Positions 1 through 18,711 of a stretch of 39,609 nt of DNA are shown piece by piece (positions within the stretch are counted from its first letter, which is position 1; every line of letters begins with the position of its first letter). The translations under genes and the position numbers were made by a program. The notes beneath the pieces were generated by a model. The model did not search any database and was not told the DNA's origin. It worked only from the letters and a program-made list of their open reading frames with translations. Source of the DNA: a virus. Location: the IMG/VR virus record IMGVR_UViG_3300008055_000088. The stretch is one strand, 5' to 3'.

Positions 1-99
1 CAGCCCATGGAGCCATGAGCGTGGAATCTATCGCAGCGTTAATGAGTGCCACATATTGCTGGATGCCTTGGTAGGTCTAGGCAGTTTAAACGCCTCAAC
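1..99. repeat. Terminal direct overlap, identical to 39511..39609 (circular-closure signature)
   Basis: Base-for-base identity of the first and last 99 nt, read directly. The overlap lies inside an ORF. Confidence 0.95.
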
Positions 100-142
100 T
101 GGCGATTGGCTCAAGAATCGCGCAGAGGGTCTTAATAGATAG
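1..142 (+). CDS. C-terminal end of the Amidoligase_2-like protein (continuation of 38861..39609 across the circular junction)
   Basis: The frame starting at nt 2 is open from the window edge to TAG 140..142. It is in register with the ORF left open at the 3' end of the window. Confidence 0.8.
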   Translation, partial: SPWSHERGIYRSVNECHILLDALVGLGSLNASTGDWLKNRAEGLNR

Positions 143-244
143 CAGGGCAGCCTGCCCCAAGTGGGCTAAGCGAGGGAGCGTTACCCTCGGCAGGCACGAA
201 CGCCACGGAAATACCGTGAGCGTTTAAACGAAAGGACTGGAACC

Positions 245-385
245 ATGATTGAGTTCTATATCTACAGCAAGAACGGTACTTATCTCAGCACAAGCAAAGC
301 CAAAGACTTGGCAGAACTTGCCCAAATCAAAGCAGCGCTAGAAAACAACCAGCAAAAAATCACCATCATAAAGGTAGGTGTTTAA
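245..385 (+). CDS. Hypothetical small protein (46 aa)
   Basis: ATG 245 with AAAGGA 9 nt upstream. The stop TAA lies inside GTTTAAAC (380..387). Too short for the ORF track. Packed tightly between flanking same-strand genes. Confidence 0.45.
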   Translation: MIEFYIYSKNGTYLSTSKAKDLAELAQIKAALENNQQKITIIKVGV

Positions 386-387
386 AC

Positions 388-483
388 ATGGAATACGAAT
401 ACCTCAATGGCACCGCGATGCTATTGGTAGCGCTGCTTTTATGGGCGCTATACAAGGCACGAATCAGTGGCAGAAACGAATAA
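388..483 (+). CDS. Hypothetical small membrane protein (31 aa, one hydrophobic helix)
   Basis: ATG 388 lies 3 nt after the previous stop. Translation is MEYEYLNGTAMLLVALLLWALYKARISGRNE, with AAGGTAGG upstream. Confidence 0.4.
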   Translation: MEYEYLNGTAMLLVALLLWALYKARISGRNE

Positions 484-487
484 AAAG

Positions 488-571
488 ATGACTGAAAATG
501 ATGATTGTTTAAACAACACCGTCATTTGTGGCGACTGCTTGCGACCTTCATGCAAAGGTTGTGAGCAGTAG
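488..571 (+). CDS. Hypothetical Cys-rich micro-protein (27 aa, CxxC...CxxC, C-terminal Glu-Gln)
   Basis: ATG 488 to TAG 569..571. Translation is MTENDDCLNNTVICGDCLRPSCKGCEQ. No clear SD. Confidence 0.3.
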   Translation: MTENDDCLNNTVICGDCLRPSCKGCEQ

Positions 572-623
572 CCGATATGATATACTTGGACAACTAACCA
601 ACTAAAAGACTGGAGAATAGAAT

Positions 624-1508
624 ATGTGTGGAATAGCAGGATATTGCTTAGATGCTAAGCATTACTCACGCATCAGCACTAGCGACCTCGCAGGGCAGAT
701 GTTGTACGACATAGAACACCGTGGCATGGATGCAACGGGCGCTGCATGGATAAACCCACGCAACGGTAGGCGCGTTATCAGCAAGGCAGCAACCAGTGCC
801 AGCAAATTCGTGCCAAAGGCAGGCGCTAATCTTTGCGATGGCGCAACGACTGCCATCTTGCATACGCGCTTTGCAACCCAAGGCTCGCCAACTGTTGCAA
901 GTAACAACCACCCAATCCCACGCGGTAAAATCGTACTCACTCACAACGGACACATCAGCAACGATACCGAATTGTTTAAACAACTAGGTGTGCCCCGTCT
1001 TGGACAAGTAGATAGCGAGGCTGCTGCTGCTCTCATTGCTTTCAGCAAAGACAAGCCATGGGAAATCTTGACCCAACTCTATGGCACCGCAGCCCTTGCA
1101 TGGGTTACCCAACACGACCCGCGCTCACTGCACTTAGCCCGTGTCAATTCATCACCGCTATGGCTAGGGCAATCTAATCATGGCTCCCTGTTCTACGGTT
1201 CTACCAAAGAAACCGTGGAGAACGCTGCAATCATGACCGATTCAGAGATTGATTGGTTCCATGATGCAGCCGAGGGGGAGTACTTCAAGGTACGCGATGG
1301 CGCAATCATTGAGTACCAAACTTTTAAACCGAGCAAGCCTGAGCCTCGCTACTATGGCTACGGTGGAAACTGGTGGAACGAATACGACACGGTAACAACT
1401 ACACCGCGTGCTTATGCAACCGAACTTGATTATCATGGCAAATACAATCAACGCCGAGCAGATAAGTATGCACGCTGGTGGGAGGATAAAGACGAACTGA
1501 ACTTCTAG
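624..1508 (+). CDS. Class-II (Ntn-type) glutamine amidotransferase domain protein, stand-alone
   Basis: N-terminal MCGI (Cys2 nucleophile), plus HTRFATQGS, NNHP, LTHNGHISN and DSE motifs. SD TGGAG 8 nt upstream. A terminator follows. Confidence 0.85.
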   Translation: MCGIAGYCLDAKHYSRISTSDLAGQMLYDIEHRGMDATGAAWINPRNGRRVISKAATSASKFVPKAGANLCDGATTAILHTRFATQGSPTVASNNHPIPRGKIVLTHNGHISNDTELFKQLGVPRLGQVDSEAAAALIAFSKDKPWEILTQLYGTAALAWVTQHDPRSLHLARVNSSPLWLGQSNHGSLFYGSTKETVENAAIMTDSEIDWFHDAAEGEYFKVRDGAIIEYQTFKPSKPEPRYYGYGGNWWNEYDTVTTTPRAYATELDYHGKYNQRRADKYARWWEDKDELNF

Positions 1509-1547
1509 TTCTGTACAGGTACTAGCAACTCTCTACTGTTTAAACAG

Positions 1548-1571
1548 CCCCCGCTTCGGCGGGGGTTTTTT
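1548..1571 (+). terminator. Rho-independent terminator after the amidotransferase gene
   Basis: CCCCCGC-TTCG-GCGGGGG stem-loop followed by T6. It sits 2 nt after a GTTTAAAC (1538..1545). Confidence 0.8.
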
Positions 1572-1572
1572 A

Positions 1573-1728
1573 ATGTATGTACTGAAGTACATAATGCTCA
1601 CCGTGTTTAAACAACACAAGTATTTGCCGCCGCCACCGCCGTACCCACCACCACCGCCGCCAGACCTCCTGGAATTTATTGTTATGTGTTTAAACGACAC
1701 GCCGCCAGACCTTATCTTCAAATATTAA
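1573..1728 (+). CDS. Possible polyproline micro-ORF or leader peptide (51 aa)
   Basis: Translation is MYVLKYIMLTVFKQHKYLPPPPPYPPPPPPDLLEFIVMCLNDTPPDLIFKY. Same strand as its neighbours, no SD, starts right after the terminator T-run, and contains two GTTTAAAC copies. Confidence 0.25.
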   Translation: MYVLKYIMLTVFKQHKYLPPPPPYPPPPPPDLLEFIVMCLNDTPPDLIFKY

Positions 1729-1774
1729 ATTGTTTAAACAACACGAAAATTATTTTTATTTTTTCTGCTTAACA

Positions 1775-1802
1775 TTGTTGACTTTAAGATAACGAGTATG
1801 AG
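1775..1802 (+). promoter_or_regulatory. Candidate promoter for the second early operon (TTGTTG-16 nt-TATGAG), possibly giving a near-leaderless mRNA
   Basis: Hexamers sit at 1775..1780 and 1797..1802. The ATG at 1814 has no SD. Weak match only. Confidence 0.2.
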
Positions 1803-1813
1803 AAACTTATGCC

Positions 1814-2014
1814 ATGACAAAACAAATGACAGAAGCACAAAAGATACAAGCAAAGCGCACGCATTGCCATCAAAAAGCAACGCGCATAGTCAGAGAACTC
1901 TACCGCGAGGACTTTGAACTTATCTACAACCATCTACTCACAGAGGCGGGGTTACTTCTCAATGAGTCAGGGTTTCAAAAATACAAACAACTAATAGCCA
2001 ACAAGAAAGGATAG
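1814..2014 (+). CDS. Hypothetical protein (66 aa), distant paralogue of 2195..2413
   Basis: ORF-track entry. Shares the pattern A-x-R-x(4)-L-x-R-x(6)-Y-x(7)-GL with the ORF at 2195. Confidence 0.6.
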   Translation: MTKQMTEAQKIQAKRTHCHQKATRIVRELYREDFELIYNHLLTEAGLLLNESGFQKYKQLIANKKG

Positions 2015-2018
2015 ACAA

Positions 2019-2195
2019 ATGTATTTAGCGACTGGAGAAATCATCGGCATCATCATTGCACTTACCAGTGCATTAATCGTGCTGGCTTTAGCCATTAAAG
2101 ACAACGCTCGTTTAAACAAATACAACATATACCTACGCAAGCGTAACTTAGAACTCACTAAGAAACTTGAGAACTCAGTAGAAAGACCGTTCTAA
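2019..2195 (+). CDS. Hypothetical membrane protein (58 aa)
   Basis: ATG 2019. Hydrophobic helix EIIGIIIALTSALIVLALAI. TAATG stop-start overlap with the next ORF. Confidence 0.5.
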   Translation: MYLATGEIIGIIIALTSALIVLALAIKDNARLNKYNIYLRKRNLELTKKLENSVERPF

Positions 2196-2413
2196 TGAGT
2201 GAATCACCAAAAAAAATAACACACGCAACTGCTCAAACAAAAGCCATACGCAGATTGGTAGACTTGCACCGCAAGCAATACCAAGAACTATATCGTGATG
2301 AGTGTGCCAAGTTAGGGCTGGACAATAACCCGACCAAGGAACAACGCATCGCAAAACTAAAGGAACAACTACAAAGACTGGAGGAAAAAAATGCCTACCA
2401 AACAAGGCACTAA
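2195..2413 (+). CDS. Hypothetical protein (72 aa)
   Basis: ORF-track entry, translationally coupled (TAATG) to the upstream ORF. Confidence 0.6.
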   Translation: MSESPKKITHATAQTKAIRRLVDLHRKQYQELYRDECAKLGLDNNPTKEQRIAKLKEQLQRLEEKNAYQTRH

Positions 2414-2660
2414 GCAAGGCACTTATGAGGGTTGGAAAAACTACGAAACATGGAACTGTGCGCTATGGATTAACAATGATTATCCACTGTATCTATCAGC
2501 CACAATTTTCATGAAGGCATACCGAGGTGTAAAGCCTTATCGTGATTGGGTAAGAATTGCTGGACTTGAAAACTCGCAGACCAAAGATGGTTGCAAATGG
2601 CTCAGCAGTAAATTATCCTATGCAGAACTTAATCAAATGATGGAAGGTTTAAACTCATGA
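2391..2660 (+). CDS. Hypothetical protein (89 aa; WKNYETWNCALWINND motif)
   Basis: ATG 2391 with GGAGG 7 nt upstream. Trp-rich motif of a type I recall from phage and plasmid proteins, family not verified. Confidence 0.65.
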   Translation: MPTKQGTKQGTYEGWKNYETWNCALWINNDYPLYLSATIFMKAYRGVKPYRDWVRIAGLENSQTKDGCKWLSSKLSYAELNQMMEGLNS

Positions 2661-2773
2661 AGTTAATCATCTGTCCAGTATGCAGTAAAGAGTGGCAACT
2701 GCGAAATGGTATGGCTTATCAAAGTCTAATACGCCACATCAAAGACGAACATAAGGAGAAGGTGAAAGTATGA
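2657..2773 (+). CDS. Small zinc-finger protein (38 aa, CxxC...HxxxxH)
   Basis: ATGA overlaps at both ends (2657..2660 and 2770..2773). Translation is MKLIICPVCSKEWQLRNGMAYQSLIRHIKDEHKEKVKV. Confidence 0.5.
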   Translation: MKLIICPVCSKEWQLRNGMAYQSLIRHIKDEHKEKVKV

Positions 2774-3135
2774 GCGAACACAAGCAAGTCAAAGGTGTAG
2801 TGATACGCCCCGATGGAACACATGAGGAAAGATTGTTTAAACAACTTTCCGATTATCAAACAGCCGTACAAGGAGTTATTGATGCGGTTCGTTTATACGA
2901 TTACAATGGCAGACAAGTGGGATGCGCTTATGTGGATGATGAGGGATTGCTTAAGGGCTCTGCCATGAATCCACTAGGCAGTGCTATTTCGTTTCTCTTT
3001 GGCAACACGCCTCACTTGGTAGGCAACATAGTAATCGTTGGCAAATCAGATGATGAAGGCTACGATACCGACATCCCTGATTACCTACTGACCCTGATAC
3101 AAAACATCAGCGCCAAGGAAGAATTGGTCGCATAA
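2770..3135 (+). CDS. Hypothetical protein (121 aa), DUF3846-like by pattern
   Basis: ORF-track entry. The pattern VIRPDG...LSDYQTAVQG.I..V....DDEGLLKG..NP resembles DUF3846-type proteins; this is recollection only. Confidence 0.6.
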   Translation: MSEHKQVKGVVIRPDGTHEERLFKQLSDYQTAVQGVIDAVRLYDYNGRQVGCAYVDDEGLLKGSAMNPLGSAISFLFGNTPHLVGNIVIVGKSDDEGYDTDIPDYLLTLIQNISAKEELVA

Positions 3136-3569
3136 TGTTTAAACGATTGGTCGCCATCTTCCTCATCGTCACCGCAAGCGTGGCAATAGACGACAGGTTC
3201 TTTGACAAATCACATGTGCCTATCACACCAGCCAGTGATGGAGTGGCAGGCACGGTGATTGCTTTCTATGAGAACGAATACCAACGCTACGCAGTAGACA
3301 TGCTCACACAGATGGGCAAACTGGAGCAATGGTCATGTCTTTACACACTATGGATGCGAGAATCAAACTGGAATCCACGAGCATTAAATCGTGAGAGTGG
3401 AGCATACGGAATTGCCCAGTTCATGCCATCAACATGGAAACTTGTGGGGTTTAAACGCACCGACAATGGCTTCGTTCAAGTGGAGGCAGGACTTGCATAT
3501 ATCCAGCGCAAGTATGGCGGAAATATCTGCAAGGCACTAGGTAGCAACATCTCAAGGGGTTGGTACTAA
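3135..3569 (+). CDS. Secreted lysozyme-like transglycosylase (SLT or aggregation-promoting-factor type domain)
   Basis: N-terminal signal/TM segment MFKRLVAIFLIVTASVAI. Catalytic-type motif WMRESNWNPRALNRESGAYGIAQFMPSTW. Confidence 0.7.
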   Translation: MFKRLVAIFLIVTASVAIDDRFFDKSHVPITPASDGVAGTVIAFYENEYQRYAVDMLTQMGKLEQWSCLYTLWMRESNWNPRALNRESGAYGIAQFMPSTWKLVGFKRTDNGFVQVEAGLAYIQRKYGGNICKALGSNISRGWY

Positions 3570-3754
3570 TGCAAGAATACCAAGAACTATTACAAGGATT
3601 ACAAAAGCATCTCATACTCAGTGGGCTTACCTTCAACGCAGAGATAGCCACTGAACCAATTATTACTAGACCAGTACGCGTTGACATACTGGTTGCCTCA
3701 GTTATGGAGTATCTAAATGCGACAGGTTATTCAAATACGACCAAAATTTCATAA
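3569..3754 (+). CDS. Hypothetical protein (61 aa)
   Basis: ATG 3569 overlaps the TAA of the upstream gene (TAATG). The ORF track offers an alternative start at 3560. Confidence 0.5.
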   Translation: MQEYQELLQGLQKHLILSGLTFNAEIATEPIITRPVRVDILVASVMEYLNATGYSNTTKIS

Positions 3755-4076
3755 GATACGCAACGCAATAGAAACGCGTGGGCGTAGGTACTACACACTT
3801 GTGTACAATCCAAACAACTTTAAAGATGCCAAGTGTGCTGGCGTACCAACGGAAAACTTTTATCCCCTAACGGATAAGTTTACCCCTGAACAGGAGCGCT
3901 ACATACGAGAGCGAATCTGTGGTGGTTGTCCAGTCATTGAGGCATGTGCCGAGTGGGGATTAGCCCACGAACGCTACGGTATATGGGGTGGCATGACCCC
4001 AGTGATGCGTGAAAAAGAACGCAGAAGGAGAGGTTGGGCATTGATTGACCCGCAGTTGAAAGACAGAGGAAATTAA
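3717..4076 (+). CDS. whiB: WhiB-like Fe-S transcription regulator
   Basis: Four Cys in WhiB spacing (C-x28-C-x2-C-x5-C: AKCAG...CGGCPVIEAC) followed by the GIWGG turn and a basic tail. Confidence 0.85.
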   Translation: MRQVIQIRPKFHKIRNAIETRGRRYYTLVYNPNNFKDAKCAGVPTENFYPLTDKFTPEQERYIRERICGGCPVIEACAEWGLAHERYGIWGGMTPVMREKERRRRGWALIDPQLKDRGN

Positions 4077-4091
4077 GTTAAACTAGAACAG

Positions 4092-4137
4092 CAAGCACCG
4101 CTTAGGTACCAGTCCCGAAGGCGGTGCTTGTTTATTT
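4092..4137 (+). terminator. Terminator at the convergence of the early rightward and leftward arms
   Basis: 10-bp stem CAAGCACCGC / GCGGTGCTTG (4092..4101 and 4121..4130), 19-nt loop, then TTTATTT. Confidence 0.55.
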
Positions 4138-4276
4138 ATGAAGCAGATTTATCGCCAGTAATAATACGAATAGCCCAATCAAGTCCAGCGTTTAAACCTT
4201 TACACCACTCATCTTTCTCAGGTATCTTTGCATCTTCAATCTTGCTAACAAACTTATCTATCTGTGGGTCGCTCAT
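4136..4276 (-). CDS. Hypothetical small protein (46 aa)
   Basis: ATG 4276 overlaps the TGA of the kinase gene (ATGA). Translation is MSDPQIDKFVSKIEDAKIPEKDEWCKGLNAGLDWAIRIITGDKSAS. Confidence 0.45.
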   Translation of the reverse strand: MSDPQIDKFVSKIEDAKIPEKDEWCKGLNAGLDWAIRIITGDKSAS

Positions 4277-4809
4277 AGTTTAAACACATTGTGCATTAGC
4301 ATGAATACTTCATCAGATAAATCATCAAGAGTTCCATCGTTATAGAGGACTCGTTTAAACATGTGGTTATCCAAAGCGCGTTCACTGATATGGTCATTGA
4401 CTGCGCCATGGTTGTGTCTGTTTATACGCCACACTTCCCCATCTTGATTCTCAATCATGCGTGCTTCGTTAGGGAAGCGAACATCGGGTATAACAATGCG
4501 CTCACCAGTGGCAACCTGATTCAACAAACGCCACACCCAAACATCTTCATGAATTAACTTGCGACCAACTTCGGTACCCATAACTTGAAGCAAACGGCGC
4601 ACCTCATCTTTAGACTTGGCAACATCCCAACTATACATTTGTACTACCTCGTTTAAACGCATACCATCATGAAGAATAGGGTTCAATGCAAGTAATGCTT
4701 CACGAATACCATCAGCAAACGCTATGCGTTTAAACCCATAGTTAAGTACCAGTAGTTCTGCAACTGTATCCTTACCACTGCGAGCGTATCCGCTCAATCC
4801 GATAATCAT
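4273..4809 (-). CDS. Deoxynucleoside monophosphate kinase-like P-loop kinase
   Basis: N-terminal Walker A segment MIIGLSGYARSGKDT. Size and pattern are typical of phage dNMP kinases. Confidence 0.7.
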   Translation of the reverse strand: MIIGLSGYARSGKDTVAELLVLNYGFKRIAFADGIREALLALNPILHDGMRLNEVVQMYSWDVAKSKDEVRRLLQVMGTEVGRKLIHEDVWVWRLLNQVATGERIVIPDVRFPNEARMIENQDGEVWRINRHNHGAVNDHISERALDNHMFKRVLYNDGTLDDLSDEVFMLMHNVFKL

Positions 4810-4970
4810 TTATCCTCCTTGTATGGACTTTCCTTCTGCTCTTTATGACAATTCATACACCAATAGTAATCAACTGGGTCGTCAAAATTATCGCCCGCTA
4901 GTGTGCCAACCCAAAAGTGAAAGCCAAACAAACACTTCAAACGGTTATACCAATACCAAAGGTAAATCAC
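4806..4970 (-). CDS. Hypothetical small protein (54 aa, GTG start, Trp/Tyr-rich N-terminus)
   Basis: GTGA overlap with the sigma-gene stop and ATGA overlap with the kinase start. Fills an otherwise empty 160-nt gap. Below the ORF-track size cut-off. Confidence 0.4.
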   Translation of the reverse strand: MIYLWYWYNRLKCLFGFHFWVGTLAGDNFDDPVDYYWCMNCHKEQKESPYKEDK

Positions 4971-5656
4971 TCTTGCTCCTCCTGATTTCTAATCATCGCT
5001 CTTGATTCAGCATTGGAGCGAACGCGCCTGCGCCCACGCCACACTGGTGCCTCTCCACCTAATCTGTCTTGCAACTTATTCAGTGCCCGTTTAACACGCT
5101 TACGCATGGCTTCCTCAGTAGTTCCATAAGTTTCACCAAGGGCACCAAACTCCATACCGCCATTGGCATAGCGCATACGAAGTAAGTCTTTGTCTGTCTT
5201 GTTTAAACGGTCCAAGCCTGCAGCAATATCTGACAAAAGTGCAATGCGATTGCCACCTTCGGATGGCTTAGTGCTACGACTTATGTACTCATTGCTCATA
5301 TCAGGAGTATCTGTCCAGCCTTGGTGTGTCCATACATCACGCAATAGTTCATGCAACACCTCATGTGTGTAGTAAAAACTATCATTGATTGGTGCGCGAG
5401 ATAGATGCGAGCGCTCTTTGGCTACATACTTCTGTGCTTCATTATAGAAAGTCTTACGCAGTTTAAACTTTAGACTTTCCTCTGCACTCCATTGTTCTAT
5501 CTTGTGCCAGTGTTCTAATGCCCACAATGAAAGGTGCTGGTATAAATCATCAGCAGTTACAAGTCCACGGTGTATGCGATTAGCACGGGTTGCCACCTGC
5601 CTAGCCACACCATAAATAGTTTCCCAAACTTTGTCTTGGCTATCCATCAATGCCAC
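4967..5656 (-). CDS. Sigma-70 family (ECF-like) RNA polymerase sigma factor
   Basis: C-terminal region-4-like HTH (DKDLLRMRYANGGMEFGALGETYGTTEEAMRKRVKRALNKLQDRL) and a region-2-like N-terminal half. Confidence 0.65.
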   Translation of the reverse strand: MALMDSQDKVWETIYGVARQVATRANRIHRGLVTADDLYQHLSLWALEHWHKIEQWSAEESLKFKLRKTFYNEAQKYVAKERSHLSRAPINDSFYYTHEVLHELLRDVWTHQGWTDTPDMSNEYISRSTKPSEGGNRIALLSDIAAGLDRLNKTDKDLLRMRYANGGMEFGALGETYGTTEEAMRKRVKRALNKLQDRLGGEAPVWRGRRRVRSNAESRAMIRNQEEQE

Positions 5657-6185
5657 CTGTAATTAATTCAATAGGTACGCGCCAGCCATCTATTGAAGCA
5701 TCGGCGTATTCATCTATCATAAAATCATCAGCCTTAAATGAACCAAAGATTTCAACTATGGAATAATACTCCTCATCTAAAATCTTAACGCCGAAGATTG
5801 TTCTGCCTACATCCTTCTTCCAAAAAGGAATTGCGCTTTGAGTCCTTACAGTTCTAACTTCAAACTCACCCACATCAGGTATGTTCTTGCGCCTAGAGTG
5901 CAGTTCATTGGGATACCAAGGCACTGACCATGACAAGTTGTATTCTCTAGCCACTGCCCACTCAGCAACATTGGCTCTGATATTCGCAAGAATCTCAGGC
6001 TCTAACTTTCCAAACTTCTTACCTGCTGCATAGTTAGGTCTATCAATGGAACCAAATTTGGTGAGCCAACGCTCTACTGCCAGTGTGGTACACACCCGCA
6101 CTTCTTCTTGACTCAGTTTAACAATCACTTGTTTAAACACCCACTCGCTTTCGTAGTCCCTCTGCTCCTTCGGTAAGGAACACAT
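5640..6185 (-). CDS. Hypothetical protein (possible nuclease-like IPDVGEFEVR motif); start uncertain
   Basis: The ORF-track entry 5640..6377 is trimmed here. Its first ~65 codons overlap the TOPRIM gene out of frame and look non-protein-like. Candidate starts are ATG 6185 or GTG 6140. Confidence 0.55.
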   Translation of the reverse strand: MCSLPKEQRDYESEWVFKQVIVKLSQEEVRVCTTLAVERWLTKFGSIDRPNYAAGKKFGKLEPEILANIRANVAEWAVAREYNLSWSVPWYPNELHSRRKNIPDVGEFEVRTVRTQSAIPFWKKDVGRTIFGVKILDEEYYSIVEIFGSFKADDFMIDEYADASIDGWRVPIELITGGIDG

Positions 6186-6753
6186 CGTTAACATCGCAGT
6201 TGTCAGGCATGAACACGGGGAATACATTGTCCAATTCTCTTGAGAGGGTCTTTGCCATCTCTTTACCTGCGTTATCACCATCACAAAACAACATAATCTT
6301 TTCCCAGTCTGCAAGAACACGAGAGTAAAATGGTTTCCAGTTGTTAGCCCCAGGCAATCCCACTGCTGAGAAGCCAACTTGTGTAGCGATGATGGTGTCT
6401 AATTCACCCTCGCATATCACAAGGAAATCTGTATCACTACTAAGCGCATCAACATTGTAAATGTGTGTGCTTGCTCCAGGTCTTGATAGATACTTCGGAC
6501 CGCTATCGTTGTTTAAACTACGGAAACGAATATCAATCACACCCGATGGAGTGAGGTATGGGATAGCCAACTTACCGAGGTAAGGTTCATGTCCTGCTTC
6601 AGGATTCGCCACGAATCCGAGGCGGAACATACGCGCCGTTTGCTCCGTTATACCGCGATTCATTAGGTAAGGCAACGCTTCTCCTAGGCTTGTTGCGTAG
6701 TTCTCCGTTGCTTTCGCCAGTAATTCTCTCTGCGATTTTGAGAGCCTTGCCAT
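6133..6753 (-). CDS. DNA primase, TOPRIM/catalytic part (DnaG-like)
   Basis: Motifs ICEGELDTI, GLPGANNW and FCDGDNAGKE. Strong SD AAGGAG 7 nt upstream of ATG 6753. The stop TAA lies inside GTTTAAAC 6131..6138. Confidence 0.8.
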   Translation of the reverse strand: MARLSKSQRELLAKATENYATSLGEALPYLMNRGITEQTARMFRLGFVANPEAGHEPYLGKLAIPYLTPSGVIDIRFRSLNNDSGPKYLSRPGASTHIYNVDALSSDTDFLVICEGELDTIIATQVGFSAVGLPGANNWKPFYSRVLADWEKIMLFCDGDNAGKEMAKTLSRELDNVFPVFMPDNCDVNDVFLTEGAEGLRKRVGV

Positions 6754-6997
6754 AATCCACTCCTTCTTTTTTCATGATTAATGAATACACATCTCCTGCC
6801 ATGTCGCAGGCAAAACATCTGAAGCCACCATTGTCTATGTTTAAACGAGCCGACTTCACATGGTCATTGTGAAAAGCGCAACGAATTGATTGCCACCCTC
6901 CACGATTCTGAGGAATTACAAATCCGTAATGCTCAAGTACTTTAACTATGCTGTGTTTAGAGGTTGGGGAGGACATCACTGAGTTTCTGAACGACAT
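6599..6997 (-). CDS. DNA primase zinc-finger (CHC2-type) protein
   Basis: CAFHNDHVKSARLNIDNGGFRCFACDMAGDVYSLIM matches the CHC2 zinc-finger pattern. The ATG 6997 (GGTGA upstream) is preferred to the GTG 7006. Confidence 0.75.
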   Translation of the reverse strand: MSFRNSVMSSPTSKHSIVKVLEHYGFVIPQNRGGWQSIRCAFHNDHVKSARLNIDNGGFRCFACDMAGDVYSLIMKKEGVDYGKALKIAERITGESNGELRNKPRRSVALPNESRYNGANGAYVPPRIRGES

Positions 6998-7322
6998 AGG
7001 CTTCACCTGTCCCTTTGTTGCTTGCCTTGATAATCACCAATGGTGTAGGCGCAACTGTCAATCGCTTTGCAATACGGTAGTTCTCTGCCTCAATCTCAGA
7101 CTCACGAATCCAACCACTCAAATCAATGCGACCATCACGGCGTGGAGCCTTGGCTTCCACCACATAAATACCATTGACTCCAGGAACAAACACATCACCA
7201 ATGTCATTACGACCAGCACGAGGTAAACGCTGTGCGTTTAAACCTTGTTGCATAAAGAAATCAGCAAGGTCTATTTCCCATGCAGCACCCCTACGCTTGT
7301 TGGCTACTTGCTGACTTGGCAT
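6957..7322 (-). CDS. PD-(D/E)XK-type nuclease, possible Holliday-junction resolvase
   Basis: Pattern G-AAWE...GRNDIGDV...YVVEAKA. ATG 7322 with GGAG upstream is preferred to the longer track ORF. Confidence 0.55.
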   Translation of the reverse strand: MPSQQVANKRRGAAWEIDLADFFMQQGLNAQRLPRAGRNDIGDVFVPGVNGIYVVEAKAPRRDGRIDLSGWIRESEIEAENYRIAKRLTVAPTPLVIIKASNKGTGEAYVVQKLSDVLPNL

Positions 7323-8034
7323 CGCGTTCTCTCCTCTCTGCTGCCTCTGCTGCTGCCCAATACAGGTTGTAATAGGCTTCATCAAAAGCAAATCGTTTCA
7401 TGTGTTTAGCAAGCACACCAGTATGGGCATGAACAGGTATACCTGCAGCCTTTACCTTTCGGAAGAAAGAAATATCTTCACCGATAAATTTCTCTCCTCG
7501 TTCGTTGTTCTCGCCAAACCAAAACTGGTCAGGGAACTTATCGTTTAAACCCTTGAGTATGCTCTTGTGCATCAGCACTAAACCCATGCCTGCATTATCA
7601 ACCTTTACTATCTGATTCTTAGGTAGAGGATGAAGATAACTAATCTCATACTCATTGCCAGTTTCATTAAAGACACAAGGCATAGGCTGCATGAGTGAGC
7701 CTTCCATCTGCTTAGAGATGAAATAAACACCGCTTACTATAGGTCGGGCTACCTTGTCAGCAGCATCCCATAGACTCTTTAACATCTCTTTGGTTAAGAC
7801 AATATCTGAATCAACCCACAGCGCCCAATCGGTATTGACCTGCTGCCACATCTCAATGGCTGCTTGTCTTTGTCGGGCAATCTGATTACCTTGAACACGA
7901 ACAGCATTATTAACTGGCACACCAACGGATGCTGCATGTATCAGTGTATAAACCAAGCCCTCAGTAAACTTGCCATCAGTGGTGCCATTGTCGCACCAAA
8001 TAATGGAAAGCATTTCTTTATTACTATGCGCCAT
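7291..8034 (-). CDS. GT-A fold (family-2-like) glycosyltransferase
   Basis: N-terminal beta-strand LSIIWCDNG and a DxD-type motif WVDSDI. Size is consistent. Family assignment is from motif only. Confidence 0.5.
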   Translation of the reverse strand: MAHSNKEMLSIIWCDNGTTDGKFTEGLVYTLIHAASVGVPVNNAVRVQGNQIARQRQAAIEMWQQVNTDWALWVDSDIVLTKEMLKSLWDAADKVARPIVSGVYFISKQMEGSLMQPMPCVFNETGNEYEISYLHPLPKNQIVKVDNAGMGLVLMHKSILKGLNDKFPDQFWFGENNERGEKFIGEDISFFRKVKAAGIPVHAHTGVLAKHMKRFAFDEAYYNLYWAAAEAAERRERDAKSASSQQA

Positions 8035-8440
8035 GTTTCATACTCTTTTCTGAATTGTCTAAAATTTTCATTGCATGTTCGGCTAACTCTTTAAAGTTCT
8101 CCGACATAATAATTAACTTTCCTGCGATTTCTTCTCGGCACTCTCCTCCGTGTTCTTCCCCGAGATGAGTAGCAAGTTGCGCCACATAGTCAGCAAACTG
8201 GATTGACTCAAACCAGATGGCGGAAGGGTTGAAGATTTTATTTGTCGTTTCATCAACAAATTCCACAAAGTTTGGGAGTTCATTTATCAGTGCTTCCTTT
8301 ATTACTTCGGGTAGTTTTGCTTGGAGTATCGCCTCCTCCACCATCTTCGGTGTAACTGACAGTTCCTCCACTGAAAAGTGTTTCATGTTGTTCTTGGGTG
8401 AGTTCTTTGAACCGCCCTGTTTCTTTCTCCTGCCAAACAT
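8024..8440 (-). CDS. Hypothetical protein (138 aa)
   Basis: ATG 8440 with GGAG 7 nt upstream. Helical, acidic sequence. Confidence 0.6.
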   Translation of the reverse strand: MFGRRKKQGGSKNSPKNNMKHFSVEELSVTPKMVEEAILQAKLPEVIKEALINELPNFVEFVDETTNKIFNPSAIWFESIQFADYVAQLATHLGEEHGGECREEIAGKLIIMSENFKELAEHAMKILDNSEKSMKHGA

Positions 8441-8612
8441 AAGTTCTCCATCCCACTGTCCAAGTAAAATTCTTAGGTATAAACATTAACTGCGCTTTCA
8501 TATCTGTAATCAGTGTCTTAGTAGGCACGACTACATCCTCGCTGTCCACTGAGCCTACTACTTCGCCCATGTTTTCAACTACTCGTAGTTCCCAGTTAGT
8601 ATCTTTTGTCAT
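8280..8612 (-). CDS. Hypothetical protein (110 aa); 3' 160 nt overlap the next gene out of frame
   Basis: ORF-track entry. Only the part 8441..8612 is unique, so the true end is uncertain. Confidence 0.45.
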   Translation of the reverse strand: MTKDTNWELRVVENMGEVVGSVDSEDVVVPTKTLITDMKAQLMFIPKNFTWTVGWRTYVWQEKETGRFKELTQEQHETLFSGGTVSYTEDGGGGDTPSKTTRSNKGSTDK

Positions 8613-8625
8613 TTATTTCCTTTCA

Positions 8626-9405
8626 TTACGGTGCAACTAAATCTTTAATCTGCATACTTGCAGGGTCATAAGCAAGCCATACTGGTGTTGCGCCATTGGC
8701 ATCGGCTGGTCCATATCGGTTCTTCACAGCACAGACACCCATTGATGCAAGTTGTCCATGAACTGTAAGTATTAATGATGGAGTCTGAGCAATTTTTCCA
8801 TGCAGTGCAGAGCGTGGTGGGCAAGGATTGCCATTAACGCCTTCACTTGTATGGTGGCAAACAACAACAGCAGCGCCAGTATCTCTAGCCCACCACTTGA
8901 GTTCACGCATGAGAGTGCGTAATCCGCCCCACTCATCTTGTCCATCAAGGGTTACATCTACAGCGTTATCAAGCACGATAAGTTCAACATCTTTACCAAG
9001 TCGCTCACGAGATGCAAGGATTGCATCCTCAATATCTTTAAGCGTAGGTGCTGAATCAAACTCCCACATGATGTGGTCAGCAGGCTTGAGCATTTGTGCT
9101 GCCCACTCCCTATCTGCTTCCATCATTGGTTCAACTTCTGCTTGTGACCTACCAGTTAACATCGCAAGCAAACGCAAACTCATAGTATGAGAGTGTGTAT
9201 CTGCCGAGATGTAAAGTGTTGGTACTTGCACATGCACTGCAAGTGACAGAGCAAGTGTTGATTTACCAGCCCCTGGAGGACCAGCAATCATGCTCACCTC
9301 GCCCCGTCTAAACGCTATTTGCTGCTCAAGCAGAGAGCGCCACACTGTTGGCAGTGTTGCACCCCCTGCTGATGCAGTACGAATAGCGCGAGATAAGAGG
9401 CGCAT
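8626..9405 (-). CDS. DnaB-like / RecA-fold replicative helicase (ATPase domain)
   Basis: Walker A GPPGAGKST and Walker B LIVLDNAVD. Sits in a primase-proximal replication module. Confidence 0.7.
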   Translation of the reverse strand: MRLLSRAIRTASAGGATLPTVWRSLLEQQIAFRRGEVSMIAGPPGAGKSTLALSLAVHVQVPTLYISADTHSHTMSLRLLAMLTGRSQAEVEPMMEADREWAAQMLKPADHIMWEFDSAPTLKDIEDAILASRERLGKDVELIVLDNAVDVTLDGQDEWGGLRTLMRELKWWARDTGAAVVVCHHTSEGVNGNPCPPRSALHGKIAQTPSLILTVHGQLASMGVCAVKNRYGPADANGATPVWLAYDPASMQIKDLVAP

Positions 9406-9408
9406 GAA

Positions 9409-9801
9409 CTATACGGTTACTTTGTTTTGGCAAGCCTGTCCCTGTGGTTTAGGGCAAGCGTAGAACGCCTTATATGGGCGACCTGTTGCCTTAGCAATAC
9501 CTGCTGGTACAAAGCGCATAGGTCCACTACCACAAGAACAATCAGGCGCTCCTGTTGCAGGTGCTGCTTGAGTTGGGCGTGGTACCGCAGTGGTACCTTG
9601 TATTGGTACTGAATTTGGGAAAGCATCCTTGACAACTGCCATACCTTCAACAGTTTTCTCAAGGTCAACTAACGCAGCAATGCGCTGTGTAAGTTGGTCA
9701 AGCAATAAATCAAGTTCAGCACCATCTTGGGCACGAAGGTTAATCAACATGCCATCTTTCTTGGTCTTGAAGTTAATTTGGATTGGTGTGTTCTCACTCA
9801 T
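9409..9801 (-). CDS. Hypothetical DNA-binding protein with a C-terminal Zn-ribbon (topoisomerase C4 / GRF-like)
   Basis: CSCGSGPMRFVPAGIAKATGRPYKAFYACPKPQGQAC at the C-terminus. Pro/Ala linker. Replication-module context. Confidence 0.5.
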   Translation of the reverse strand: MSENTPIQINFKTKKDGMLINLRAQDGAELDLLLDQLTQRIAALVDLEKTVEGMAVVKDAFPNSVPIQGTTAVPRPTQAAPATGAPDCSCGSGPMRFVPAGIAKATGRPYKAFYACPKPQGQACQNKVTV

Positions 9802-10627
9802 CTGTATCTCCTAGTTCGGGGTATTTATGTGATTCGGAACCATTTACTGCATAGCAAGCATGATTAACAGAACATGTACCGCACATAAATCCTGGTTGCG
9901 GTATGAATATGTTGTTGTCAACAGCAATCTTAAAGCCTTTAACCTGTGAGGCTAAACGCTTTTCAGTGTAGTGTGTTAAGTCTACTGGTTCAGTTAACTC
10001 ACCAGTACGAGCCATGAAGTAAGCACCCTTAACAGGGCGAATACCCATAGCCTTCTCGCACATAATCGCGTATGTGCCTAGTTGTGTATAGGTAACGGGT
10101 GGTTTACTAGAAGTCTTTATGTCCACAACAATTAGTTCACCAGCAGGTGAAACCATAAGTCGGTCCAAAAATCCTTTCATTAATACACCACCGATTTCTA
10201 CATTAAGTTCAGTTTCAATGGCGAACTCACCACCTGATAATTGATATGGCTGGTATCCACTATCTTGTCGGAACTGAATCCAAAAATCCACCATCTTGGG
10301 TCCATTTTCCAACCACCATGATGCATCCTCTTTGTTGGGATACGCCTTAGTAGCCCTGCCACCAGCACGGAACGGCATGCCGTTGTCAGCAAGACGATAG
10401 TTCTCCTCCCATCGTGCAGTAAATACTGCAGTAGGGTCAAAGTTATCGGGATTTGTGTCGTATATCTCTGTCGCTTCATGTAAAGATTTACCCCCTACAA
10501 GCCAGTAGGATGGGTTCTCAGCGACTTTCTGTATGCGGGTCAGGTAATATGCCCAGCCACAATTAAGCCATGAACTCATGGCACTGTGGGAGATATAGCC
10601 TTTCCCAGTCTTTTCTTCAAGTGTCAT
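9794..10627 (-). CDS. Cas4/RecB-like PD-(D/E)XK exonuclease with a Fe-S Cys cluster
   Basis: N-terminal Cys (WLNCGWAYYL), VVDIKTS (D/E-x-K), QLGTYA, and C-terminal CGTCSVNHAC. Confidence 0.8.
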   Translation of the reverse strand: MTLEEKTGKGYISHSAMSSWLNCGWAYYLTRIQKVAENPSYWLVGGKSLHEATEIYDTNPDNFDPTAVFTARWEENYRLADNGMPFRAGGRATKAYPNKEDASWWLENGPKMVDFWIQFRQDSGYQPYQLSGGEFAIETELNVEIGGVLMKGFLDRLMVSPAGELIVVDIKTSSKPPVTYTQLGTYAIMCEKAMGIRPVKGAYFMARTGELTEPVDLTHYTEKRLASQVKGFKIAVDNNIFIPQPGFMCGTCSVNHACYAVNGSESHKYPELGDTDE

Positions 10628-10752
10628 ATTTCTCCTTTGCAGGGGCGAGTGTATATGTACCTCACTCCTCTATTCGGCGACACGCCGAGAGAACTACAAG
10701 GTTGTAATTAAAAAATCAGTATACTCCTGTTCGTGCAGAACGGGCTAAGTGT

Positions 10753-10968
10753 ATGAGTTTGCTGAAGCGTAAGCGGAAGCAAAGCCAATTAAAGCACAGT
10801 TATCGTGGTATTCCCACTCATGTATGTCCTTGCGGTTCTCAACTTTTTAAAGTCGCGTGCATGTTTGAGGATGGCGAGATTGCAATGTGGTTTACTGAAG
10901 CAGAGTGTGCCTTATGTGGCGCTGAATTGACAGCCCCAACTCCGCTTGATAAAGTTGAAACGCTATAG
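10753..10968 (+). CDS. Small Zn-ribbon protein (71 aa), isolated rightward gene
   Basis: CPCG...CALCG motifs. The only + strand ORF between 4077 and 38684. Followed by its own terminator. Confidence 0.55.
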   Translation: MSLLKRKRKQSQLKHSYRGIPTHVCPCGSQLFKVACMFEDGEIAMWFTEAECALCGAELTAPTPLDKVETL

Positions 10969-11010
10969 CACTTGGGGAAGTGTTGTAGTGGTACTACTCC
11001 TTATCAGACA

Positions 11011-11068
11011 AAAACAAAAAAGCCCCCGCTCATCAAGAAATTTCTTGACGGCGGGGGTTCTTTTGTTT
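11011..11068. terminator. Bidirectional rho-independent terminator
   Basis: A-run, then CCCCCGC (11023..11029), an inner palindrome TCAAGAAATTTCTTGA, GCGGGGG (11051..11057) and a T-run. Convergent genes lie on both sides. GTTTAAAC follows at 11065. Confidence 0.8.
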
Positions 11069-11081
11069 AAACAGTATTAAG

Positions 11082-11267
11082 TTATTTTACTCTACCGAAT
11101 TCGGCAGCCGATGGGTCCAACCACTTCAACACAGGACCAAGGAAACCCGCAAGGGCAGCCACTCCTAGTGTTTTAATGTCTGTTTCACCAGCGAGGTAGA
11201 GTGCGATTGCAGCAGATGCTGCAGCACGGAACCAGGTTAGCGATACTTGCTTTAGTTGTTCCAGCAT
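11082..11267 (-). CDS. Holin-like small membrane protein
   Basis: Two hydrophobic segments. Immediately downstream of the endolysin. Confidence 0.5.
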   Translation of the reverse strand: MLEQLKQVSLTWFRAAASAAIALYLAGETDIKTLGVAALAGFLGPVLKWLDPSAAEFGRVK

Positions 11268-11798
11268 TTATTTACCTTTCTTGTTTGCCAAACCATGTAC
11301 CTTGCAACAAGTACATACCAATACTTCAGCCTTGGCAGGCTTTTTCTTAGGTGCTGAACCGATGGCTTCTGCCACTATTTGCTTGGCTAGGCTTGGTTGA
11401 TTCTTCCACCAAAACCAAGGGCTGGTATCGCCAGCGTACTCAGGTCTGATAGAAACATGGAGGTGTTTTGTATGCGGATTTTGACCCGTATACTTTCGGT
11501 CACCTTGCTTTGCATGTTGGCGTGACCAAATCTTACTATTGAATATGAGATAACTAACTCTGTTATCTTCTTTGAGGCGTTGAAAAATATCTGAACAGTC
11601 AATACCGTTCTTTGGGTCATGGGTTAAATCTACCGCAAGACCTGTGTTGTGGTCTGAGTTAGGACTTAGTGCCAAATGTGCAATGGAAGGGAGTAAACCG
11701 TCTGATGCTTTCTTGCGTAGGGGGGCAAGAGCAGTCGCCTGGCGTAGCATGGACAATGCAGCAGGGCTGGCAGACTTTGCAACTTTGGGTTTGGTCAT
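11268..11798 (-). CDS. Endolysin, LAS-superfamily (M15-like) zinc peptidase
   Basis: H-x6-D (DHNTGLAVD) and H-x-H (HLHVS) metal-ligand signature. Flanked by two small membrane proteins. Confidence 0.6.
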   Translation of the reverse strand: MTKPKVAKSASPAALSMLRQATALAPLRKKASDGLLPSIAHLALSPNSDHNTGLAVDLTHDPKNGIDCSDIFQRLKEDNRVSYLIFNSKIWSRQHAKQGDRKYTGQNPHTKHLHVSIRPEYAGDTSPWFWWKNQPSLAKQIVAEAIGSAPKKKPAKAEVLVCTCCKVHGLANKKGK

Positions 11799-11801
11799 CG
11801 C

Positions 11802-12005
11802 TCATTTCCTCAATAGTTCTTTGACTAAATCAGTTAATAGGTCAACTTTATCTTCTAGTAAATTAACTTTATCTTTAAGGCTAGAACCACCATTGGGTCT
11901 TAATTCATATAGGTAATGCTTGACCATCCAGCGCACAGCGCCAGCAAGTCCAGCAACTAAAGTTAATATGGCTACGGCTAAGCCAGCCCAATCAGCAGGT
12001 GTCAT
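11802..12005 (-). CDS. Lysis-associated membrane protein (N-terminal TM plus coiled coil)
   Basis: TM segment WAGLAVAILTLVAGLAGAV, then LKDKVNLLEDKVDLLTDLV. First gene of the lysis cassette. Confidence 0.5.
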   Translation of the reverse strand: MTPADWAGLAVAILTLVAGLAGAVRWMVKHYLYELRPNGGSSLKDKVNLLEDKVDLLTDLVKELLRK

Positions 12006-12023
12006 GTTCTTATCCTTATATGT

Positions 12024-13994: not shown

Positions 13995-14096
13995 GTTGCT
14001 CCTTAAATACTAGCGTTTCTGCTGTGTCAATATGGTCATCTATGTCTTTAAAGATAGGGAATATGTCGCTTACTAGGCTCATTGTCCCCTACTTTC

Positions 14097-15705: not shown

Positions 15706-15759
15706 TAGTTACTGTACCTTTCTGTTTGTTTGTTTGTGAACTATCTTGAGGGATTGTGC

Positions 15760-15963
15760 CTAGCCTAAAAGCAACTTGGCTTCATCGGCACTTATGCCTA
15801 GTTTTTCCAAAAGAGCCTCTTTTGCTGCTGCCTTTTCTTGCTTCTTAATTTGCTCGGCTTTGGCATTTGCCAAATCTTTTTGGTGTTGAGCCAATTCTTC
15901 TGCCGTCATATCTCTTTTAATTATTTCGCCAGTTTCAGTATTGTGAATAACTATTGTTGTCAT
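15760..15963 (-). CDS. Hypothetical coiled-coil protein (67 aa)
   Basis: ORF-track entry, coupled to the upstream fibre gene. Confidence 0.5.
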   Translation of the reverse strand: MTTIVIHNTETGEIIKRDMTAEELAQHQKDLANAKAEQIKKQEKAAAKEALLEKLGISADEAKLLLG

Positions 15964-18703: not shown

Positions 18704-18711
18704 TTTCTACC

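Follow-up and report, generated by a model that had tools for sequence, protein, structure and literature searches.

An exact palindromic octamer concentrated in the early and distal replication segment of a putative freshwater actinophage genome co-varies with a small zinc-ribbon protein

Background

The viral genome IMGVR_UViG_3300008055_000088 from IMG/VR, analyzed here as a single stretch of 39,609 nucleotides (nt; hereafter, the window), contains dozens of exact copies of one 8-bp palindrome, GTTTAAAC, most of them crowded into one segment. Why would a phage genome keep one word at such a frequency, and chiefly in the part that encodes its early and distal replication functions? The answer that we favor, tentatively and a little short of calling it probable, is that the copies are cis-acting sites for a phage-encoded, sequence-specific double-stranded DNA-binding factor, the best candidate reader being the zinc-ribbon product of the first early gene (gene A).

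Abundance and distribution of the octamer

Overall, GTTTAAAC occurs 42 times in the window, against 0.92 copies expected from dinucleotide shuffles, the largest of which contained 5. Because bases 1-99 are identical to bases 39511-39609, site 39594 duplicates site 84, and the 42 matches represent 41 real, unique sites. A first-pass annotation of the window had counted 41 copies and assigned 33 of these to the arc that runs from position 38192 across the junction of the circular map to position 7550; the recount gave the same figures, with the arc spanning 8.87 kb, or 22.4% of the genome. None of 20,000 uniform placements reached 33 sites (the largest value was 23) in the permutation test that the annotation had proposed, run here as a circular scan statistic, and the binomial tail for the pre-specified arc is 5e-15. 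Only eight copies lie outside the arc, with none in 7551-11064, again as annotated, and these sparse 30.6 kb are still about tenfold enriched in the octamer. One octamer alone is affected: the runner-up 8-bp palindrome has 7 copies, and 41 of the 60 TTTAAA hexamers in the genome sit within GTTTAAAC. The base composition of the arc is ordinary.

The boundary at about 7550, which the first-pass annotation placed inside a co-oriented leftward gene block, indeed falls within the glycosyltransferase gene (7291..8034), and the left boundary is equally sharp, with no sites in the non-coding stretch 37836..38191 and five in the non-coding stretch 38192..38633. Within the arc, 10 sites lie in about 0.9 kb of non-coding DNA and 23 in about 8 kb of coding DNA, such that coding sequences are overlapped by about 70% of the arc sites and by two thirds of all 41. 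The mean spacing in the arc is 277 bp and is more even than random (coefficient of variation 0.72 vs 0.97, P = 0.03); no periodicity is apparent among the listed site gaps, only local clusters of three to four sites. A promoter and terminator scan of the window detected no promoter excess and no partner element for the motif (promoters throughout this work were predicted by eye or by consensus).

The window consists of a 39,510-bp circular assembly followed by a 99-bp overlap; the simplest explanation of this exact direct terminal repeat is that the genome is circular, or circularly permuted, and that its assembly overlaps itself. Two rightward early operons encode the gene A product, an amidoligase (across the junction), a class-II glutamine amidotransferase (GATase), small open reading frames (ORFs), DUF7249 and DUF3846 proteins, a transglycosylase (SLT) and WhiB. 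They converge with a leftward replication block that runs from a Cas4-like exonuclease through a DnaB-like helicase, a glycosyltransferase, a RusA-like resolvase, a primase in two ORFs and a sigma factor to a dNMP kinase, and a long leftward late block encodes the tail fibre, capsid, a 2,221-residue virion protein, portal and terminase. The gene labels of the first-pass annotation for the replication block were essentially correct, its "nuclease" being the RusA-like resolvase. Among the window proteins scanned, none belonged to integrase, partition, repressor-type or methyltransferase families, and Rfam and tRNA scans of the window gave no match. The closest GenBank phage in nucleotide searches, and the only one, is the distant phage E7 of "Candidatus Planktophila" LanE-43 (OX376640; PMC10202952), which shows weak enrichment of GTCTTAAGAC. 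Together with WhiB, this relative indicates the type of phage: on sequence grounds, the window represents a freshwater phage family infecting Nanopelagicales (acI) actinobacteria.

Exactness of the sites and selection on them

Variants of the octamer with one mismatch are at background (24 vs 21 expected, with 3 in the arc), which suggests that recognition is all-or-none and symmetric. Two codon phases are represented, xGT-TTA-AAC and xxG-TTT-AAA-C, and sites lie on both coding strands as well as in non-coding DNA; because they occupy two frames and non-coding DNA, the possibility that they act as -1 frameshift signals (U_UUA_AAC) was set aside.

We aligned the replication module with MAFFT, including the region 4190-4353, to relatives with about 80-81% nucleotide identity. 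In these comparisons, the window sites were identical in 11 of 11, 10 of 11 and 10 of 10 comparable cases, against 29-31% of all 8-mers (P values from 2e-6 to 3e-5), and at 70% identity, 4 of 10 sites were identical, against 13% of the 8-mers. Accommodating the sites comes at the cost of amino-acid changes. Judging from these alignments, the sites are under purifying selection that acts on the DNA rather than on the protein.

The same segment carries a different word in a sister clade

Through the helicase, we fetched 80 related loci, about 60 of which carry the GTTTAAAC array; far from being evenly spread, the motif is polarised in these relatives in the same way as in the window. A sister group of about a dozen loci has almost no GTTTAAAC but contains 30-43 copies of TGTCTTAA(G) per 20 kb, with the core CTTAAG and including some full GTCTTAAGAC palindromes. 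In a density profile of 17 loci anchored on the first early gene of this sister clade, TGTCTTAA is at about 0 per kb over terminase and portal, rises to 4-7 per kb starting exactly at the first early gene, continues at 2-3 per kb through kinase, sigma, primase and resolvase to the glycosyltransferase, and all but disappears in the vicinity of the helicase, some 9 kb away from the first early gene. The early regions of the two clades cannot be aligned at the nucleotide level, the early operon differing wholesale. Of eight sister-clade sites in the shared replication genes, five are no more than 15 alignment columns away from a GTTTAAAC column (P = 0.001). The Toprim ORF, for example, has its stop codon inside GTTTAAAC in the window clade and inside GTCTTAAGAC in the sister clade, and a stretch of the sigma gene differs between the clades as AGT CTA AAG TTT AAA CTG vs AGT CTT AAG TAC AAA CTG. 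That the same domain was rebuilt with another motif points to a trans-acting reader whose specificity differs between the clades; two words on one segment, both selected despite the amino-acid cost, are a strong signature of a cis/trans recognition system.

Two loci are recombinant. The replication module of L055 contains two relic GTTTAAAC copies and near-sites, and its early operon is full of TGTCTTAA; in L143, TGTCTTAA is confined to the replication module, with none in the early operon. In both loci, the sites match the ancestry of each module.

Orientation bias relative to transcription is seen only in the early operon of the sister clade. In the early operon of L082, there are 17 TTAAGAC in the sense orientation vs 6 GTCTTAA, and the motif abuts a ribosome-binding site (RBS) or a start codon (cTTAAGAC directly before AGGAG, TTAAGAC directly before ATG), even within the upstream gene; the replication genes contain it in both orientations. 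Early genes in this family of phages (L143, L144, L145 and L001, and the early operons of L055 and L075) have an extended translation-start context, (T)AAGACAGGAGAAA, and the motif together with the RBS is often translated as a C-terminal tail ...LKTGE of the preceding protein. In L145, this context is lengthened to TTACGACATAAGACAGGAG; a search for a third motif type in L143-L145 revealed no iterated array, only this extended RBS context, in 5-6 copies.

Co-variation of the motif with the ribbon protein

When ribbons were compared by BLAST with all ORFs of all loci, three queries from GTTTAAAC-type loci produced 56, 64 and 38 matches, all of them in GTTTAAAC-type loci, and a sister-clade ribbon produced 65 matches in TGTCTTAA loci and 6 in motif-free loci. 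A second route started from the motif only. Scanning IMG/VR for three copies of GTTTAAAC within about 100 bp yielded more than 120 loci, which included, besides relatives of the window, an unrelated freshwater phage family from the same lakes (33 loci), hereafter class B. These phages encode a 555-residue primase-helicase fusion, recombination genes of the Erf and exonuclease types, a LexA-like protein and an HNH nuclease; they carry 1.3-2 sites per kb, sparser over portal and terminase, with clusters of 3-5 sites directly 3' of the primase-helicase gene. By BLAST, the window and class B share only three proteins, namely, a weakly similar primase, a weakly similar terminase, and the ribbon, at 44-50% identity.

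As a test of prediction, 78 further loci were fetched solely with a profile built from 8 class-B proteins (48-100% identity; contigs of about 4 to 64 kb; GC content 0.46-0.61). Over their combined 700 kb, 8.5 copies of GTTTAAAC would be expected and 850 were found; no locus has fewer than two, and GTCTTAA is not enriched in them (66 copies). Conversely, 66 loci fetched with the sister-clade protein contain 24 copies of GTTTAAAC and 1,550 of GTCTTAA in 818 kb. The relatives are non-independent samples, so that all these locus counts overstate the number of evolutionary events.

Other gene products were considered as readers and rejected. Locus L065 keeps GTTTAAAC and yet is sister-clade-distant in sigma, WhiB, kinase, primase and helicase alike; sigma, WhiB and kinase were discarded because their divergence does not follow the motif. 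The amidoligase and the GATase are specific to the window clade but absent from the unrelated class-B phages.

Several low-GC viral contigs (L148, L178, L186, L193, L210 and L238; GC content 0.21-0.41) contain 11-17 GTTTAAAC per 9-15 kb, against 0.3-0.6 expected; the loci are partial, and no ribbon ORF was seen in them. At least in L238, many of the copies are spaced in tandem, and some of these cases may be a different phenomenon. The matches from a scan of bacterial and archaeal genomes for triple motifs were for the most part periodic tandem repeats, together with a few short contigs, probably viral, and are uninformative with regard to the host; a search with WhiB homologues toward host contigs returned phage proteins only. 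A literature search for GTTTAAAC or GTGTAAAC in phages produced nothing relevant.

Homologues and octamers in cultured phages

GenBank phages encode 164 homologues, annotated as "SprT-like protease", and the cultured phages that bear a motif infect hosts of 61-71% GC (Microbacterium, Arthrobacter and Dinoroseobacter) or Escherichia coli. In Microbacterium phage Zeta1847 (L466; 71% GC), the top enriched octamer is GTTTACAC/GTGTAAAC, with 22 copies vs 0.1 expected, 17 of them outside the 19-kb structural arm and 7 in promoter-like units. Arthrobacter phage Reedo carries 12 copies of GTTTACAC in 16.8 kb, of which two bracket the predicted promoter of the SprT-like gene (CTTGCG-17-TAGACT); an inverted GTTTACAC pair flanks the terminator that precedes this gene (L467, 6955-7010). 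Dinoroseobacter phage R5C has four copies of CGTTTAAACG in 19.9 kb, and E. coli phage ECO1230-10 has five of GTTTAAAC, against about 0.6 expected, one of which is located 8 nt past an extended -10 element, TGTATAAT, directly upstream of the SprT-like gene. Site density is much higher in the freshwater phages. Zeta1847 and Reedo encode integrases.

Taken together, the comparisons indicate that the word follows the protein family across hosts and shifts gradually with the divergence of the protein, from GTTTAAAC to GTTTACAC to TGTCTTAAG. The presence of sites at the gene's own predicted promoter in three distant phages suggests autoregulation.

The seven units of Zeta1847 (at 19281, 35379, 36204, 42381, 43213, 45058 and 45506) are each about 60 nt long and near-identical, with the layout ACTTGCGC-N4-GTTTACACGCGTGTA-N9-13, followed by ATGACGAACACCACC in six of the seven. 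They are promoter-like, embed the 12-bp palindrome TACACGCGTGTA, and give different genes the same first five codons (MTNTT).

The gene A ribbon and SprT-like proteins

The gene A product is a stand-alone zinc ribbon with the predicted ligands C24, D27, C46 and C49 (numbering of the 57-residue form). The invariant core of the ribbon is KQTTRLxKV-C-x2-D-x-YIxRxSRS...G-PICPxC, in which the basic residues are also invariant. It aligns, at 44-73% identity, with the C-termini of proteins of 176-242 residues of the SprT-like type; members of the SprT superfamily combine a protease with a zinc-binding DNA-binding module. In the window gene A, the SprT-like domain (Pfam PF10263) was not found. In other members of the window clade, the ribbon ends a 176-189-residue protein that is alignable over its full length to SprT-like proteins and has lost the HExxH motif. 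In class B, the ribbon likewise ends an SprT-like protein, with HExxH intact in some members and lost in several. The first early gene of the sister clade encodes a 227-residue SprT-like protein (PF10263, HEVAH motif) with a C-terminal zinc ribbon, and this is the only gene that is universal in the sister clade and missing from the window clade. Matches to PF10263 are at or just below the gathering score (L151, 1e-5, and L256, 2.5e-4, in class B; L075, 5e-6, in the sister clade), and a sequence search of the PDB with the class-B protein gave no match. Loss of the protease combined with retention of the ribbon appears to point to a binding rather than a catalytic role, and we count this in favor of gene A encoding the reader.

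Placement of the individual sites

The sites and the stretches that define the arc are as follows (strand is given where it applies).

38192..39609: first part of the dense arc, from the GC-rich control region (non-coding) through gene A into the amidoligase gene, of which it includes the 5' part; 8 sites including the duplicate 39594
1..7550: second part of the dense arc, 26 sites; end of the amidoligase gene, GATase, small early genes, SLT and WhiB (all on the + strand), continued to 7550 by the leftward genes for kinase, sigma, primase, RusA and part of the glycosyltransferase
38634..38858, + strand: gene A, the first early gene, 74 residues (57 from the ATG at 38685)
38523..38626: sites upstream of gene A, at 38523, 38568 and 38619, spaced by 45 and 51 bp
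1538..1739: gap of 305 bp between the two rightward operons, with four sites at 1538, 1605, 1688 and 1732
4190..4360: convergence of the rightward and leftward transcription units, with sites at 4190, 4278 and 4353
4651..7550: nine coding sites from the kinase to the glycosyltransferase gene, at 4651, 4728, 5201, 5461, 6131, 6511, 6839, 7236 and 7543
37836..38191: site-free non-coding stretch between the terminase gene and the arc, with a hairpin-rich element
7551..11064: no sites; promoter-proximal half of the leftward replication operon, plus the non-coding DNA upstream of it with a palindromic terminator
11065..29950: eight scattered sites outside the arc, at 11065, 12022, 18769, 19674, 21171, 26673, 29262 and 29943

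Site 38568 begins 7 nt past a GATAAT hexamer that resembles a -10 element, which is an operator-like position, and the sites at the SprT-like genes of Reedo and ECO1230-10 have a parallel, clearly operator-like placement relative to the predicted promoters. Start codons are abutted by sites 380, 2647, 3137 and 4278, the last of these lying 1 nt upstream of the start codon of the small gene 4136..4276, and three sites supply stop codons, including 6131 (the Toprim ORF) and 12022. The genes of the site-free stretch 7551..11064 are the rest of the glycosyltransferase gene, two unknown genes, the helicase gene, another unknown gene and the gene for the Cas4-like exonuclease. Two copies of the motif are adjacent to hairpins of intrinsic terminators: 1538 directly precedes the hairpin at 1546-1567, and 11065 directly follows the palindromic hairpin at 11017-11064.

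A candidate recognition system and its closest known counterparts

If GTTTAAAC is a binding site of the ribbon protein, this protein would be made first and, as a symmetric dimer, would bind the sites at its own promoter and some 30 further sites across the early 22% of the genome, within and between genes. Binding would mark or down-regulate the whole segment, as the mycobacteriophage L5-type repressor does with its operator and "stoperators", and the likely outcome would be shut-off or dosing of the early and distal replication genes, including that for the phage sigma factor. We infer that the ribbon protein, rather than a tightly linked protein, is the reader, and that its binding represses transcription; the protein may also block or shut off transcription across the early segment, it may control the distal leftward genes including sigma, and there may be a link to DNA entry.

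Among the interpretations offered in the first-pass annotation, a protein-binding domain is thus the one that we favor, given the exact palindromes, the selection on them, the replacement of the motif and its strict co-variation with the protein family; the annotation's choice among silencing, partition and condensation is not one that these data make. Its suggestion that the arc is the segment that enters the cell first or is transcribed first is compatible with the findings: the arc spans both rightward early operons and begins exactly at the non-coding region next to the terminase gene. The arc also takes in the promoter-distal half of the leftward operon, and the contig starts of the relatives are scattered.

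Several considerations weigh against the ribbon protein as the reader of the octamer. The AlphaFold model of the gene A product has a pLDDT (predicted local distance difference test) score of 75, and Foldseek returned generic zinc ribbons, one of them a sigma-binding protein, with no significant match, so that the proposed DNA-binding role is without support from the fold; we know of no close precedent for a 57-residue ribbon that reads an exact 8-bp palindrome. In 20 class-B loci, there is no ribbon ORF within the partial stretch examined, although, the loci being partial, absence from a locus does not mean absence from the genome, and L142-L146 combine diverged SprT-like genes with the lack of any iterated motif. 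The co-variation would be compatible with a small, tightly linked gene as the source of the true reader, or with a host factor common to phages that exchange early genes. Furthermore, the model gives no account of why the domain ends within the glycosyltransferase gene, and with two thirds of the sites intragenic and no integrase, the arrangement is unlike that of classical stoperators.

Short motifs repeated in the early region or at gene starts are also present in other actinophages, namely, the conserved inverted repeats of Streptomyces phage phiC31, to which the repressor of that phage binds, and the Start-Associated Sequences of Cluster K mycobacteriophages; these are 13-17 bp long, intergenic and present in 10-20 copies per genome. 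In contrast, the window sites are 8 bp long, mostly intragenic and not tied to start codons, the RBS-linked form being found only in the sister clade. With respect to the protein, the long forms of the candidate reader resemble SprT/Spartan/Wss1 metalloproteases in that they belong to the Pfam SprT-like family. However, the known members of that group bind DNA without sequence specificity and repair DNA-protein crosslinks, whereas here the protease motif has been lost repeatedly, the ribbon alone kept, and a specific octamer accompanies the gene.

Another of the closest counterparts is the operator-plus-stoperator system of Cluster A mycobacteriophages (L5 gp71-type), in which motif and repressor co-diverge and the sites are syntenic (PMC6550527). 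As in the window, tens of copies of one short site are found per actinophage genome. They occur at the early promoter (a predicted one in the window) and in many other places, and related phages have different motifs, each matched to its own phage protein (in the window clade, to a candidate), at syntenic positions (PMC6550527 and PMC9283540). Cluster A stoperators, however, are asymmetric, 13 bp long and placed in short gaps between genes on both genome arms, with an orientation that follows transcription, and their reader is the monomeric helix-turn-helix immunity repressor of temperate phages; the window has an exact 8-bp palindrome, two thirds intragenic, concentrated in 22% of a genome without integrase, and its candidate reader is an SprT-like-derived zinc ribbon. 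The combined features point to what may be a previously undescribed protein-and-binding-site control system.

A broader proposal, which we regard as doubtful, is that of a widespread phage system in which an SprT-like family with a sequence-reading ribbon recognizes GTTTAAAC-type octamers planted by the dozen across the early, possibly first-entering part of the genome. In phages with an intact protease, the array would hold this DNA-dependent enzyme on the incoming phage DNA and so clear host proteins, such as silencers or nucleases; where the protease is lost, as in the window, the ribbon alone would serve as a domain-wide regulator. Switches among GTTTAAAC, GTTTACAC and TGTCTTAAG would isolate lineages that are mutually blind, similarly to heteroimmunity. 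If the SprT-like/zinc-ribbon protein is indeed the reader, more than 160 sequenced phages, including many Arthrobacter and Microbacterium phages of teaching collections and one E. coli phage, would have a function for a gene that so far bears no annotation beyond "SprT-like protease", and a new type of sequence-specific DNA-binding module would be added. Stoperators would then no longer be an idea limited to temperate mycobacteriophages but would apply also to lytic phages of the bacteria that are most abundant in fresh water, and this role of the protein would be directly testable in the culturable Zeta1847, Reedo and ECO1230-10. The sharp physical domain could reveal the staging of DNA entry or of the early-to-late switch.

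Alternative explanations

The alternative that survives best, which we nevertheless consider unlikely, is that another phage protein linked to the SprT-like gene reads the sites, either a small regulator or a sigma factor for which the octamer is a promoter or operator element, the ribbon being a mere marker of the module. The promoter-like units of Zeta1847 (ACTTGCGC-N4-GTTTACACGCGTGTA...ATG), which contain 7 of its 22 sites, fit this possibility, as does the -35-like TTTACA within GTTTACAC. Both Zeta1847 and the window encode a sigma factor, a "DNA binding domain protein" is encoded two genes past the SprT-like gene of Zeta1847, and the early operons encode many unannotated small proteins. 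However, the identity of sigma does not track the motif, and the ribbon protein is all that the window and class B share in BLAST comparisons apart from the weak primase and terminase similarities. A set of 33 promoters in 9 kb, many of them intragenic and on either strand, is implausible, and in the window there is no conserved -10 partner at a fixed spacing.

It is also conceivable, but improbable, that the word is determined by the host, for instance, as a Chi-like octamer that tames a helicase-nuclease of the host, is concentrated at the DNA end exposed upon injection or packaging, is common to phages of one host and changes with a host switch. A precedent exists: an exact octamer has likewise accumulated in lambdoid phage LLS, where half of the 23 Chi copies are crowded into the terminal 22% of the genome, and in Pseudomonas phage MD8, with 32 Chi copies (PMC12315714). 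The arc likewise makes up 22% and begins at the terminase-proximal non-coding region, the usual place of pac or cos, and the unrelated phage family from the same lakes has the same motif. Nevertheless, phages of Microbacterium, Arthrobacter, Dinoroseobacter and E. coli that encode the protein family carry this octamer or a one-base variant of it, and these hosts cannot share Chi (that of E. coli is GCTGGTGG); the fact that the word follows the protein across unrelated hosts argues against any host-determined signal of this kind. Chi is host-specific, G-rich, asymmetric and read on one strand, whereas the window octamer is AT-rich and a strict palindrome; nor do the scattered contig starts of the relatives mark an exposed end. 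Both a host Chi-like signal and plain mosaicism are disfavored.

A phage counterpart of HIP1, with the octamer kept as the target of a phage or host methyltransferase (or a similar enzyme) through repair bias or a methylation-dependent function, seems just as improbable. The strict 8-bp palindrome and its all-or-none exactness would suit such an enzyme, and GTTTAAAC is identical to the type II recognition site of PmeI, as the sister-clade core CTTAAG is to that of AflII. According to PMC5861425 and PMC4390886, HIP1 (GCGATCGC) and its cyanobacterial kin are also exact 8-bp palindromes, 15- to 300-fold over-represented in coding and non-coding DNA, conserved at orthologous positions between relatives and differing between lineages as variants, all of which has its parallel here. 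However, HIP1 is chromosomal, genome-wide and linked to orphan methyltransferases, whereas the window motif is viral and confined to a sharply bounded 22%, and no methyltransferase domain was found in the window proteins scanned. The window motif tracks, across hosts, a non-enzymatic ribbon protein apparently of the DNA-binding type.

We give little credence to the octamers as replication signals, whether as iterons of an origin or as sites that a primase prefers. The two motifs begin with GTT and GTC, the primase triplets of phages T4 and T7; the primase is the only protein family common to five motif-bearing lineages, and class-B sites cluster in groups of 3-5 directly after the primase-helicase gene. 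Yet primase genes are widespread among phages, and the ORF for the primase zinc ribbon shows no co-variation with the motif. Iterons are packed into a few hundred bp, whereas the window sites extend over 8.9 kb, and priming sites would be needed genome-wide.

Very improbable, too, is a signal at the level of RNA or translation start on early transcripts (a processing site or a start-associated sequence), with a palindrome present whichever strand is transcribed. The sense orientation of the sister-clade motif in the early operon and its abutment on the RBS or start codon would agree with this, and so would window sites 380, 2647, 3137 and 4278 at start codons. However, motif-free relatives already use (T)AAGACAGGAGAAA, so that the orientation bias can be piggy-backing on the RBS; furthermore, the orientation in replication genes is mixed, most window sites lie deep in genes, and strict palindromy has no rationale in a single-stranded RNA signal.

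Finally, mosaic ancestry, which the first-pass annotation had suggested, taken as a neutral footprint with the arc coming from a donor of different oligonucleotide usage, has next to no likelihood and does not suffice alone: although the early region cannot be aligned between the clades and the sites of L055 and L143 fit the history of each module, the arc is ordinary in base composition with a single octamer affected, the sites lie in vertically conserved replication genes at conserved columns and are conserved far above background, and the sister clade has rebuilt the same domain with a different motif.

Other features of the window

The primase is encoded on the minus strand (6133-7006) by two ORFs in different frames with a 155-nt overlap, one for the DnaG zinc ribbon (6599..7006) and one for Toprim (6133..6753). 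These are separate in all relatives, which implies either two proteins or a conserved programmed frameshift.

The amidoligase (PF12224; 38861..39510 and 1..142) and the class-II glutamine amidotransferase (624-1508) form an early pair that is specific to the GTTTAAAC clade within the family; the pair is also found in a more distant lineage (L172, L192 and L227; terminase 44% identical).

In the tail-fibre gene (16724..18703), at least 10 degenerate copies of a 21/42-nt period at 17339-17968 encode a repeat rich in Ala, Thr and Ser and account for the k-mers GCTGCAGC and GCAGCAGC. The 2,221-residue protein of the virion block (26793-33458, minus strand) shows weak PHROG matches to a head maturation protease and an ADP-ribosyltransferase toxin at residues ~888-975.

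A non-coding element located just upstream of the terminase gene (37860-38030, about 160 nt) contains four short hairpins, with the arms CTAACC/GGTTAG, GCGACCC/GGGTCGC, GGAGGC/GCCTCC and GTGTCC/GGACAC. The element, for which Rfam gave no match, could be a pac or cos site, a late promoter or leader, or a small RNA, and it is conserved in the sister clade (L082, ~9400-9560) despite non-conserved flanks.

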